Part shown: positions 1,807 to 37,203 of the stretch, one piece after another
How the letters are laid out: every line of letters begins with the position of its first letter
Position numbering within the stretch: the stretch's first letter is position 1
Sequence record: NC_014792.1
Direction: 5' to 3' (one strand)
Length of the DNA stretch: 64,000 nucleotides
DNA from: Escherichia phage vB_EcoM_VR7
Program-made: the position numbers and the translations under genes
Notes under the pieces: model-generated
Database searches by the model: none
What the model saw: only the letters and a program-made list of their open reading frames with translations
Told to the model about the DNA's origin: nothing

Positions 1807-1894
1807 AATTAATTAACCTTATAAATATCATTATAAATTATACCCTCTATACTTTCTTTCTCTGAAAGGAATTAATCGTATCGGAAGGTCTAGA

Positions 1895-9196: not shown

Positions 9197-9226
9197 ACCA
9201 TTATACAGCCATAAAATTAAAGCATT
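9197..9226 (-). promoter_or_regulatory. MotA-dependent middle promoter for uvsY
   Basis: Minus strand reads TGCTTTA, 12 nt, TATAAT, then GGTTCTAGACC. Confidence 0.55.
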
Positions 9227-9614
9227 AACCGTTTTGACTTAACTGAATCCTGATTTGTTCGAGGGTGTCAGGGTCATCAACAATGCTGAACTGAACCGTT
9301 ACGATGATGGAGTTATCATCATACATAGGGACAACCGCAACCTGTAGATTGCTTATCCTTGGTTCGAAGTTCCGCACCGCGGAGACGATGTTGCGTTTAA
9401 TAGTATCTGTGATTAATGGAGTGATATTCTCAAAAAGCTGATTACTTATATCACATCCAAATTCAGGCATAAAAGGCCTTGACCCTTTTCTTGTGGTGAT
9501 TATTCCCAGAAGACTGTTCTTAACAGACCTTGCACCAGTTACTTTAGCAACGTCTTTATCCCAACTCATTGACAAGTCGGGAGGCACATCGCTATACATT
9601 TTGTTTATATTCAT
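9225..9614 (-). CDS. 25: baseplate wedge protein gp25
   Basis: 129 aa; strong match to T4 gp25 (NSLLGIITTRKGSRPF.PEFGCD). Confidence 0.85.
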   Translation of the reverse strand: MNINKMYSDVPPDLSMSWDKDVAKVTGARSVKNSLLGIITTRKGSRPFMPEFGCDISNQLFENITPLITDTIKRNIVSAVRNFEPRISNLQVAVVPMYDDNSIIVTVQFSIVDDPDTLEQIRIQLSQNG

Positions 9615-10244
9615 TTACATAAACTTAAACTTAAAGAATTCTTTAAGCCCCTTAATTACATGGACAGAATGCGCTCCACACTCACAAGAGATAGGAATAG
9701 CCATTTGGACCTGTGGCTTGAGAAGTTCTTCCGTTAGTGCATTGATATCATCGAGGGTAATTGCATTGTACAGGTCCTCGATTTCGGCCTCATTTAAGTC
9801 ATCAACAACGATGCGCTCGCCGCCTTCGGTGATAATATATTCAATGCAACAAGCAATCATTTTTCCTTTATCACCGTCTTCAAACAGTCCAGGATAACGG
9901 AATTTGATTTTAAACGACCCAAAATCACGAATAACTTCAGACTCGTCCACGATGCTCGCACGGCTAATCGTTACCGGAATATCTTGTTCCTTTCCACACT
10001 CACATACCCATGTATGCTCGACGTTGACAGCTCCGAGACTATTTGCCCAGAGATTAATAAGAAGCAGCTCGGCTTCCTGTTTGTTTAACCCTTTAGCATC
10101 AGTGCATTTATTAAGCAGTTCAATTATTGCAGGTTCCATACGCTTTTCTAATTTTGCCTGAAGCAAATCTTTATATTCGCGCAAGGTAAAAGCCCTACAA
10201 TTTATAGTTTTATTTTTAATTTGGACAATAAATTCATAAGTCAT
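9615..10244 (-). CDS. 26: baseplate hub protein gp26
   Basis: About 210 aa from MTYEFIV with AAGGAG RBS; T4 gp26 position; start at 10277 is rejected because it lies within the promoter. Confidence 0.65.
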   Translation of the reverse strand: MTYEFIVQIKNKTINCRAFTLREYKDLLQAKLEKRMEPAIIELLNKCTDAKGLNKQEAELLLINLWANSLGAVNVEHTWVCECGKEQDIPVTISRASIVDESEVIRDFGSFKIKFRYPGLFEDGDKGKMIACCIEYIITEGGERIVVDDLNEAEIEDLYNAITLDDINALTEELLKPQVQMAIPISCECGAHSVHVIKGLKEFFKFKFM

Positions 10245-10261
10245 AATTTGCTCCTTTACTG

Positions 10262-10273
10262 TATTTATAAATA
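10262..10273. promoter_or_regulatory. Overlapping divergent late promoters (TATTTATAAATA) for 26/25 (minus) and 51-54 (plus)
   Basis: Plus strand has TATAAATA at 10266-10273; minus strand reads TATAAATA at 10262-10269. Confidence 0.6.
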
Positions 10274-10297
10274 TCAATAAAGATAAAAGGGGATTCT

Positions 10298-11050
10298 ATG
10301 GCCAATATCGTAAGATGTGAAATGCCAGACGGAGTTCATCGTTTCAAACCGTTTACAGTCGCTGATTACCGTGATTTACTGCTTGTGCGAAACGACATGA
10401 ACAACAAACCCGTCGAAGAACAAAAACAATTATTAGACGAACTGTTAGAAGATTATTTTGGAGAGTATCCGAAAGCATGGAGACCTTACATATTCCTGAA
10501 GGTATTCACTTCCTCTATCGGCAAGACGAAAGTCCCGGTAGCGTTCGAATGTCAAAAATGTAAAAAGACAAAGCAGACTTTGTTTAACATGAGCCAAGGT
10601 CCATTGATAAATCCAACGATGGAAACCGCAGGGATAAAAATACAATTTAAGTTCCCTGAAGTGGAATATAAAGATAAGTCGGAGCTTGTTCTAAACACCA
10701 TCCAGACTGTCGAAGACTCGGAACAAAAGTACAATTGGGAAGACCTTCCTGAAGAAACGAAGATGCAGGTTATTGATGCCATTGATATAGAGAGCCTCGA
10801 AGAGCTCCTTAAGAAAATGCACTCGATTTATCTTCCATTTACATATGGTTGTTGCGAAAAGCACAAAACCGAATACACTGACCTGCTTGATGTCTTTAAG
10901 CTCATCCTTAACCCGGATGAAGTCTTTGTATTTTATCAAATTAACCACTTGCTGGTAAAGAATCAATATTCGCTGGATAGCATCATGCAAATGATTCCTA
11001 TCGAACGAGGTATCGCTTTATCGTTAGTTGAGAAGGACTTGAAGAAATGA
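10298..11050 (+). CDS. 51: baseplate hub assembly protein gp51
   Basis: 250 aa at the T4 gene 51 position; clear paralogy to the adjacent gp26. Confidence 0.65.
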
Positions 11051-12216
11051 CAGCTAAATCTATGCAGCGCGAAGGCTTTCCTAATATCAGCATACGCCTT
11101 TATGAAGATTATGATGCCTGGCTTGAACACCGTTTTGTAGAACTGGCTGCAACATTTACAACGTTAACCATGCGTGATTCCCTTTATGGAAGAAACGAGG
11201 GGCTGTTGCAATTCTATGACACAAAGAACTTACATACAAAAATGAATGGCGAACAAATTATTCAGGTCTCCGTTAAGAATGCCAACTCAGACCGAACCCA
11301 ATCCAGGATATATGGAAGCAAGCACTTTGCTGTTTCTGTGGATGCAAAGGGTGATAACATAATTACAATTCAACTGGCGCCCATTCACGAAATTGAAGAC
11401 CTGAAATTTAGTCGTATGTTTTACCCGAGTGTACAAGAAACATTAGTCGAAATGACCGGGGTAATTTATCAGGACCGACCATTACTTGCTCCTCCGATAA
11501 ACGGCATAAACGTTTATGCTCCTAATGTTCCATGGTGTGATTCGATGAACCAATATATGGAATTCATAAGGGAAGTAGGTCTTGCAGTTGAGTCTGATAA
11601 ATTTGTATTTGTATGGGAAGATATCGATGGCATAAGTATTCAGGATTATGAATGGTTAACTACACAAGAGCCGATTAATTTTGTGGTGGGTGAACCTCGA
11701 TTGGTTGGTCAGTTTGTACAAAACCTCGAGACTCCGTTAGCCTTCGATTTTGAATGGTTAACAAAGGCAAACCAACATACAAGAAAACCATATGAAAACG
11801 CAACCGTGTACGCACATTCATTCCTTGACAAGAATGCAACCAGAATAACTTTTGGGGAAGGACAAAACAGCATTCTGGTATCTCGTTCCGGGGGATATTC
11901 GGATTACACATACCGAAATGGTTTCGAGGAAGCACAACGATTAATAACCATGTCTCAATATGATGGTTACGCGCACTGCAAAACATACGGGAACTTTGAA
12001 TTAACCCCGGGTGATAAGATTAACTTCTATGACCCGAAGAACCAATTCAAATATGATTTTTACGTAGACGAAGTTATTCATGAAGTGAGTAACAATACAT
12101 CAATTACAAACCTCTATATGTTTACCAATGGTAAGCCTATCGAAGTTGAAGAACCACCGAAGGTTAAAAATGAACTTAAAACTGATTCTGCCGACGAAGA
12201 AAATACAGCTGGGTGA
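11047..12216 (+). CDS. 27: baseplate hub protein gp27
   Basis: 389 aa; extensive match to T4 gp27 ([32 protein letters not shown]). Confidence 0.9.
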
Positions 12217-12688
12217 TAAAGAGATTCATGTACCTAAGCTTGGACTTAAGCATCACAATCTGATTAAAAACGAACCTAATCCTTATGCTGCATTAAGAAA
12301 GATTATGCAATCGGTATTCCCTAATCTTACAGCAGCCGAATCCGACTTTGTATCTTTACATCTTCTGGAATTCAATGGTAAGCTAAAAGACAAACGCGAG
12401 ATTAATGGATTTACATATAAGCTGGATGATGTTTATATCTGTCAGCGCCTTGAATTCTCTTATCAAGGAAAGACATTTAAATTCCGCTCTAATAAACCGT
12501 ATGAAGAATTCGGACCAGTTGACAATCTCCTGGAGACCCTTTATCTCGGGGAAGATGTTCCAGACTTTCTGGATATGCCTGCTTTTGTTGCTAAGTGGGC
12601 AGACGATATCACAAGCACATTAGCAATCCCGGGTCCAAATGGTCCTGTTAAGGGGTTACTGAAAATAATGGAACTCCTAAATGAATAA
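12170..12688 (+). CDS. 28: baseplate hub distal subunit gp28
   Basis: About 172 aa from [10 protein letters not shown], overlapping the gp27 3' end; the track start at 12128 is rejected. Confidence 0.6.
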
Positions 12689-24442: not shown

Positions 24443-24599
24443 TTTAGAAGCCTCAATATGAGGTGAATATTTGGTGGACACGTTCTTCTGAATTTCACTT
24501 CCTTTCGGCAAGTCTCTCAGTTGTAGTCCACCGTTTAGGATTCTCCGGGTAACTAACTGGTCCGGCAGCCAATCCATATTATTATTTATAACGCTAATT

Positions 24600-37072: not shown

Positions 37073-37203
37073 GTTTTCCTCTGTTATAAAATGGGGTCAT
37101 GCTTATACTAACACATGACCCCTGGAGCGGAATCGTATTTATAGAAGGAAGTTAAGTCCGACCATTACGACCAAAAATAAAATGCCAGCAATTTGAATTT
37201 TCA

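Follow-up and report, generated by a model that had tools for sequence, protein, structure and literature searches.

The genes considered here lie at the standard gene 25-26 / 51-27-28 baseplate-hub junction of a T4-like phage, where two sets of genes point away from each other across a short non-coding spacer. Over the 2.2 kb around gp26 and gp51, identity is 98.7% with Escherichia phage vB_EcoM_VR25 and 95% with Shigella phage SP18, both of which belong to the Straboviridae (Tevenvirinae, genus Gaprivervirus), and the window, by which we mean the whole stretch of 64,000 nucleotides that was analysed, comes from a T4-like coliphage of the same genus. Genes 25, 26, 51, 27 and 28 each match their own Pfam family, and the gene names and coordinates proposed in an earlier sequence-only reading of this DNA are correct when set beside the open reading frames and the Pfam matches. 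On the minus strand runs gene 26 (9615-10244), whose 209-residue product is described as a 'baseplate hub subunit / hub assembly chaperone' and matches both PF12322, over its full length (E 2.6e-57), and PHROG 150; its residues 1-206 are 100% identical to gp26 of VR25. The start codon is the ATG that gives MTYEF and is preceded by AAGGAG. A longer frame opening with TTG, and reaching to 10277, was ruled out, since the ATG equivalent to the one at 10244 is the start in all homologues. Downstream in the same leftward unit, with its ATG directly after the gp26 stop codon, lies gene 25 for the baseplate wedge subunit (9225-9614, minus strand; Pfam PF04965 GPW_gp25, E 5.8e-17), which is named gp25 in both VR25 and SP18.

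In the other direction, on the plus strand, gene 51 occupies 10298-11050 as a whole, and its residues 1-201 (10298-10900) make up a PF12322 domain (E 3.6e-58) that is paralogous to gp26. Next in the rightward unit is gene 27, which encodes a baseplate hub subunit (11047-12216, plus strand; PF09097, E 2e-87, and PF09096, E 4e-76) and whose start overlaps the gp51 stop codon in the sequence ATGA; gene 28 (12128-12688, plus strand) comes after it. The spacer between genes 26 and 51 measures 53 bp and contains, on both strands, the 12-bp palindrome TATTTATAAATA (10262-10273), which holds two T4-type late-promoter motifs. The arrangement will be familiar from T4 itself (AF158101 / NC_000866), which has the same gene order, with uvsY, 25 and 26 leftward and 51, 27 and 28 rightward, and the identical palindrome in a 50-bp spacer. 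The T4 proteins share 50% (gp26) and 53% (gp51) identity with those of the window, and the distance from motif to ATG is 17 nt for gp26 and 24 nt for gp51 here, as against 21 and 17 nt in T4. In addition, the internal AUU start of gp26' in T4 corresponds to ATC in gp26 of the window, which, unlike its T4 counterpart, carries a 6-bp duplication at the 3' end of the gene.

Paralogy of gp26 and gp51

That gp26 and gp51 are ancient paralogs is beyond doubt. BLASTP joins the two in one colinear alignment of 181 residues, with 24% identity and an E value of 4e-8, and the four pairs of short motifs that the sequence-only reading had quoted as signs of common descent are all present in the translations and all fall inside this alignment. 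Comparison of family profiles by hhalign, using 12 gp26-type and 10 gp51-type proteins from different genera, raises the match to a probability of 99.6% (E 1.5e-23 over 183 columns). Both proteins are matched by PHROG 150, and both score far above the gathering score of 24.5 bits that, over most of the model, sets membership in PF12322 (T4_baseplate): gp26 reaches 194.4 bits (model positions 3-219) and gp51 197.3 bits (positions 1-219). The family is sizeable: at E <= 1e-3 it numbers 3417 representative clusters, whose length is mostly 230-240 residues. AlphaFold2 models built on the family alignments (pLDDT 95.7 for gp26 and 95.8 for gp51; pTM 0.89 and 0.90) have the same order of elements, namely two strands, three helices and then a beta-rich part with interspersed helices, and they differ by one extra short strand at 97-99 in gp26 and three added C-terminal helices in gp51. 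The shared part, as modelled, is a predicted N-terminal beta-hairpin and three-helix domain followed by a beta-rich domain. A pairwise identity of only 24% might tempt one to see the resemblance as convergent or compositional instead of homologous, but this view is effectively refuted by the colinear profile match, by the single curated Pfam model that takes in both proteins at full length (approximately 1e-57), by the matching predicted topologies and by cysteine pairs that sit at equivalent positions in gp26 and gp51.

These cysteines are of particular interest. In gp26 they form two zinc-knuckle-like pairs, Cys81-x-Cys83 (9996-10004, minus strand), which the model places at the turn from strand 74-80 to strand 86-92, and Cys187-x-Cys189 (9678-9686, minus strand), placed at the turn from strand 178-186 to strand 192-198. 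The corresponding pairs in gp51, Cys85/Cys88 (10550-10561, plus strand) and Cys185/Cys186 (10850-10855, plus strand), are each predicted to lie in a hairpin turn. Within the gp26-type alignment, C81, C83, C187 and C189 are nearly invariant across the Straboviridae, and all four positions are retained in 81 of the 98 family representatives. The gp51 pairs are equivalent to those of gp26 in T4-type phages, the first pair is lost in lineages where the two genes lie in tandem, and the homologue in cyanophage S-N03 lacks all four cysteines. Judging from the models, the four residues probably come together as a split zinc-ribbon-like site interrupted by an insertion of about 100 residues, and we regard this as a probable, predicted zinc site; matches to zinc-ribbon Pfam families are sub-threshold in many family members. 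Searches for a solved structural relative, with sequence profiles against the PDB and with Foldseek, gave nothing significant.

The sequence-only reading had treated the two hub proteins as duplicates of one another, and here the paralogy stands while the idea of gp51 as a simple copy of gp26 does not, given an extra PHROG 634 module at the end of gp51. This C-terminal module of about 50 residues (10898-11050 including the stop codon, plus strand) is absent in gp26, falls outside the Pfam model, and is predicted as three helices (residues 208-249 in the AlphaFold2 model). Taken alone, the last 50 residues of gp51 match PHROG 634, 'baseplate hub assembly catalyst', with an E value of 1.5e-10, and the same profile matches the 62-residue, stand-alone 'gp51' of cyanophage S-N03 (E 3.3e-17). 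The small S-N03 gene lies directly downstream, on the same strand, of the sole PF12322-type gene annotated in the 10.7-kb stretch examined, and the protein encoded by that neighbour is closer to gp26 (BLASTP E 1e-8) than to gp51 (E 0.09). BLASTP found no match between the small S-N03 protein and gp51 of the window, and the link between them rests on the PHROG 634 profile. Read through these sequence profiles, T4-type gp51 combines a gp26-like domain with a module that is found elsewhere as a separate gene. A review by Petrov et al. counts gp26 among the core genes of T4 relatives and leaves gp51 unmentioned (PMC2993671), which is consistent with such a composition.

Gene order and the age of the duplication

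How the two genes came to face away from each other is a separate question, and the proposal that had been made from the sequence, that of an ancient inverted duplication, fares differently in its two halves. The survey covered 59 related IMG/VR loci, in which open reading frames were sorted by HMMs for the gp26 and gp51 paralog groups. The divergent arrangement, with 26 leftward and 51 rightward, is found in 48 loci, whereas ten have the genes in tandem, 51 and then 26, and one is cut off before gene 26. Among annotated phages the tandem form occurs in Citrobacter phage Miller (Pseudotevenvirus), Klebsiella phage KP1 (Slopekvirus) and Pectobacterium phage POP12, all three of which have the order 48-54-51-26-25 on one strand. 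Both paralogs are found in every Straboviridae lineage sampled, which bears out the word 'ancient'; indeed, both paralog groups are recognisable in both types of arrangement, and the duplication must therefore be older than the split of these lineages. That it was inverted is not established, in view of the tandem genes of Pseudotevenvirus, Slopekvirus and POP12.

An inverted duplication is one possibility, and the data are just as compatible with a tandem duplication and a later rearrangement. In the latter scheme the genes would have been duplicated on the same strand, as they would still stand in Pseudotevenvirus, Slopekvirus and POP12, and the divergent orientation, together with the palindromic promoter, would have come later, by inversion or rearrangement in the T4 lineage. 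We take this seriously and put it a little short of an even chance. The common gene order of Miller, KP1 and POP12 and the ten tandem IMG/VR loci favour it, as does the presence of both recognisable paralog groups in either arrangement, and S-N03, with its family member and its small homologue of the gp51 tail side by side on one strand, points the same way. The divergent form is nevertheless the commoner one (48/59 loci), and the NJ tree of the family is crude, with a gp26 group that is not a clean clade. Within the 26/51 spacer, a search for an extended inverted repeat brought up one weak 9-nt pair besides the 12-bp palindrome, and nothing else. Mirror-image Shine-Dalgarno sequences, which are seen in many relatives, were considered as evidence of a duplicated spacer and rejected, because they are explained by function.

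A palindrome with two overlapping late-promoter motifs

The spacer does carry TATAAATA on both strands between gp26 and gp51, just as the sequence-only reading had said, with the plus-strand copy at 10266-10273, the minus-strand copy at 10262-10269 and an overlap of 4 bp. The 64 kb hold 11 copies of the motif where 4.7 +/- 2.1 would be expected, and in 100 shuffles the count always stayed below 11; eight of the copies are followed, 17-30 nt downstream, by the ATG of a long open reading frame. At the junction, where the two ATGs each have a Shine-Dalgarno sequence, the geometry is the same as at six other sites in the window. The exact 12-mer, in comparison, is unique in the window, and the other late promoters there are single, unlike the overlapping pair at 26/51. 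The site resembles T4-type late promoters in general in that the consensus is exact on either strand, the segment downstream is AT-rich and the short leader includes a Shine-Dalgarno sequence; it departs from them in that two promoters facing opposite ways have 4 bp of their recognition elements in common.

The definition of late promoters and the machinery that reads them are set out in earlier work (PMC1524935, PMC2988020), according to which the T4 motif spans -13 to -6 (PMC1524935) and T4 late transcripts may have either polarity (late-transcription review, PMC2988020). Applying the -13/-6 rule here, the predicted leftward leader, for genes 26 and 25, would be 12 nt long (10245-10256, minus strand), with an A at 10256 as +1 and AAGGAG at 10256-10251, so placed that the first transcribed base would also be the first of the Shine-Dalgarno sequence. 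The predicted rightward leader, for genes 51, 27 and 28, would measure 19 nt (10279-10297, plus strand), with an A at 10279 as +1 and AAGGGGA at 10287-10293. The two predicted starts, 10256 and 10279, lie 23 bp apart.

It should be said that an AT-rich 12-bp palindrome built around TATAAATA has the motif on both strands automatically, and its symmetry is for that reason no independent evidence of function on two strands. The comparison between phages bears on this point. An identical palindrome is found in Serratia phage 4S, Acinetobacter phage Henu6 (Twarogvirinae) and Klebsiella phage KP179, and 42 of the 49 non-tandem IMG/VR loci (the 48 divergent ones and the one cut off) have the palindrome letter for letter. 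The flanks around it come in 24 distinct variants, with a mean of approximately 0.5-0.6 bits per position; since these variants were anchored on the palindrome, its own 2.0 bits arise by construction and only the divergence of the flanks is informative. Retention of the exact palindrome in so many loci despite diverged flanks is more than chance. Departures from the exact sequence are also revealing. In Aeromonas phages the element is TATTTAAATA, still a palindrome although 2 bp shorter, and at locus L051 each strand has its own, separate TATAAATA, the two motifs standing 7 bp apart; both variants indicate selection for the motif on each strand. RB49-type phages have TATTTTATAAATA, in which the perfect motif faces rightward only, and tandem loci have no TATAAATA upstream of gene 51, with a terminator-like hairpin after gene 54 instead. 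This pattern of sequence variation argues that the late-promoter motif is selected on each strand wherever genes 26 and 51 diverge.

The RB49-type sequence is the natural starting point for a different explanation, in which the rightward promoter of gene 51 is the only one that works, the leftward TATAAATA is a by-product of the palindrome, and genes 26 and 25 are read from minus-strand promoters inside or beyond gene 51. We think this quite improbable, while noting that phages of the RB49 type manage without a perfect leftward motif and that the GenBank record of RB49 annotates, within gene 51, a sigma-70-type -35/-10 pair directed at gene 26, which agrees with further leftward transcription and means that expression of genes 26 and 25 need not depend on the palindrome alone. 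A leader of 12 nt is, moreover, unusually short, and the window has a sigma-70-like site of similar appearance (TTCACA-17-TAGAAT, 10321..10293, minus strand), although this is no better than chance and a sigma-70 scan of the region gave no excess over shuffles. A leftward by-product sits badly with the finding that in the 42 of 49 loci both halves of the palindrome are equally invariant while the bases next to it vary, and with the Aeromonas variant, which lost its 2 bp symmetrically and kept the palindrome; locus L051, where the motifs have separated, still retains one full TATAAATA per strand. The GenBank records of T4, VR25 and SP18 have no promoter features at this locus. In T4, whose element is identical, overlapping late promoters for divergent transcription of the baseplate cluster at 26/51 were reportedly mapped in 1989, with both divergent starts, and genes 25 and 26 are said, in a report of 1991, to be transcribed from additional upstream promoters as well.

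We are thus left with an explanation that we hold, as a whole, with high confidence: a hub junction with paralogs of the PF12322 family, a palindrome that would act as a gp55-dependent late promoter on each strand, and firing of both units from the shared site. For the DNA studied here, transcription of the two strands from the palindrome is what we infer from motif, geometry and conservation together with the reported mapping in T4. Late in infection, after replication begins, host RNA polymerase with gp55 and gp33 would be activated by the gp45 sliding clamp and would recognise TATAAATA without a -35 element, as is the case in T4 biology (PMC2988020). The polymerase would bind the AT-rich palindrome in either orientation and open the site, so that a leftward start at about 10256 would serve genes 26 and 25, and a rightward start at about 10279 would serve genes 51, 27, 28 and onward. 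Because the motifs overlap by 4 bp and the predicted starts are so close together, one polymerase should exclude the other, and with mutual exclusion the two hub-assembly units would be expected to fire alternately from the site that they share.

Possible roles and wider significance

What gp26 and gp51 actually do during hub assembly is a tempting subject for speculation, and one lead is a weak, unconfirmed resemblance of both to phage tail assembly chaperones. The proteins and families in question are HK97 gp13 (PDB 2ob9), YqbN (PDB 3klu), and Pfam PF06222 and relatives. When two alignments from the gp26/gp51 family were run by hhalign against a purpose-built alignment of the HK97 gp13 family, the probabilities were 0.5% and 0.2%, which amounts to no similarity, and neither the table for the first member nor the list of the 25 Pfam families matched most often by the 98 members includes one of tail assembly chaperones. 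It therefore seems unlikely to us that gp26 and gp51 are the T4-type tail assembly chaperones, with a gpG/HK97-gp13-like N-domain and a split zinc ribbon, acting on the gp27-gp29 hub/tape-measure complex. The same doubtful scheme would derive gp51 from a gp26-like gene fused to a small cyanophage-type 'gp51', and would have the mutually exclusive promoter couple the output of the two units; genes 27 and 28 come after gene 51 in the rightward one.

It is only fair to add that neither of the two main features is new. The paralogy is already known, in the sense that gp26 and gp51 stand together in PF12322 and in PHROG 150, and so is the palindromic late promoter, which T4 itself has. A search of the literature for an explicit statement of gp26/gp51 paralogy, or for work on PF12322, found nothing usable. 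For genome annotation the locus carries little weight, as a textbook T4 junction in a near-identical relative of published phages. Its interest lies elsewhere: across several genera, few non-coding elements of the region are as conserved as the palindrome, and the two alternative arrangements of the paralogs bear on how this gene cluster evolved. In addition, a confidently predicted fold and a probable zinc site, in a family with no significant solved relative, could help to address the biochemical role that gp51 and gp26 play in assembly of the baseplate hub.

Promoter-like matches at the gene 26-51 junction and elsewhere in the window

In the RB49 record (AJ489481; L002 1528-1554 in our comparison), a sigma-70 -35/-10 pair is annotated within gene 51 and directed at gene 26, and we find a sigma-70-like match on the same strand in the window, at 10293-10321 (-), which spans the start of gene 51 and agrees at 10 of 12 positions; such matches, however, are not enriched relative to shuffled sequence. 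Of the late-promoter motif TATAAATA, which the palindrome between genes 26 and 51 holds on both strands, there are also three copies elsewhere in the window that depart from the usual geometry, at 1820-1827 (+), 24583-24590 (-) and 37136-37143 (-). One of the three has no ORF start within 120 nt (when ORFs of at least 50 aa are required), one has an ATG just 5 nt downstream, and the remaining one precedes a GC-rich hairpin (GGGGTCATG...CATGACCCC) and lies 63 nt from the next long ORF.

Gene order and gene 51 in related loci

Pseudotevenvirus, Slopekvirus and POP12 loci (L006, L010, L013 and L062-L072) carry genes 51, 26 and 25 in tandem behind 48 and 54. Immediately 5' of gene 51 these loci have a GC-rich hairpin and T-run, resembling a terminator, and no TATAAATA was found near gene 51 in any of them. 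Two IMG/VR contigs vary in other ways. At about 2440-2500 of L051, this lineage has, in place of the palindrome, one full TATAAATA motif on each strand, the two separated by 7 bp; the transcripts predicted from this arrangement would overlap at the 5' end by a few bases. Gene 51 of L061 (2483-3255) is broken into two overlapping ORFs of 120 and 148 aa, the cause being a frameshift or else an error in the sequencing. In Synechococcus phage S-N03 (L011 4971-5872), a homologue in PF12322, the Pfam family common to gp26 and gp51, has none of the four conserved cysteines; the gene annotated there as 'baseplate hub assembly catalyst' encodes only 62 aa, the counterpart of the C-terminal tail of T4-type gp51.

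The 3' end and a possible internal start of gene 26

At its 3' end gene 26, which is coded on the minus strand, contains a 6-bp tandem duplication (9621-9632; AAACTT twice on the plus strand), which gives gp26 an extra C-terminal Lys-Phe relative to VR25 and SP18. The duplication adjoins the junction with gene 25, where a split ribosome-binding site with a hairpin in between has been described in T-even phages (PMC3014915). In T4, an in-frame product from within gene 26, gp26', is annotated as starting at ATT (IKFRYP...), whereas the equivalent codon in the window, Ile113 of gp26 at 9906-9908 (-), is ATC and is preceded by a weaker purine run than in T4; judging from these two differences, the internal start of gp26' may therefore not be conserved in VR7.
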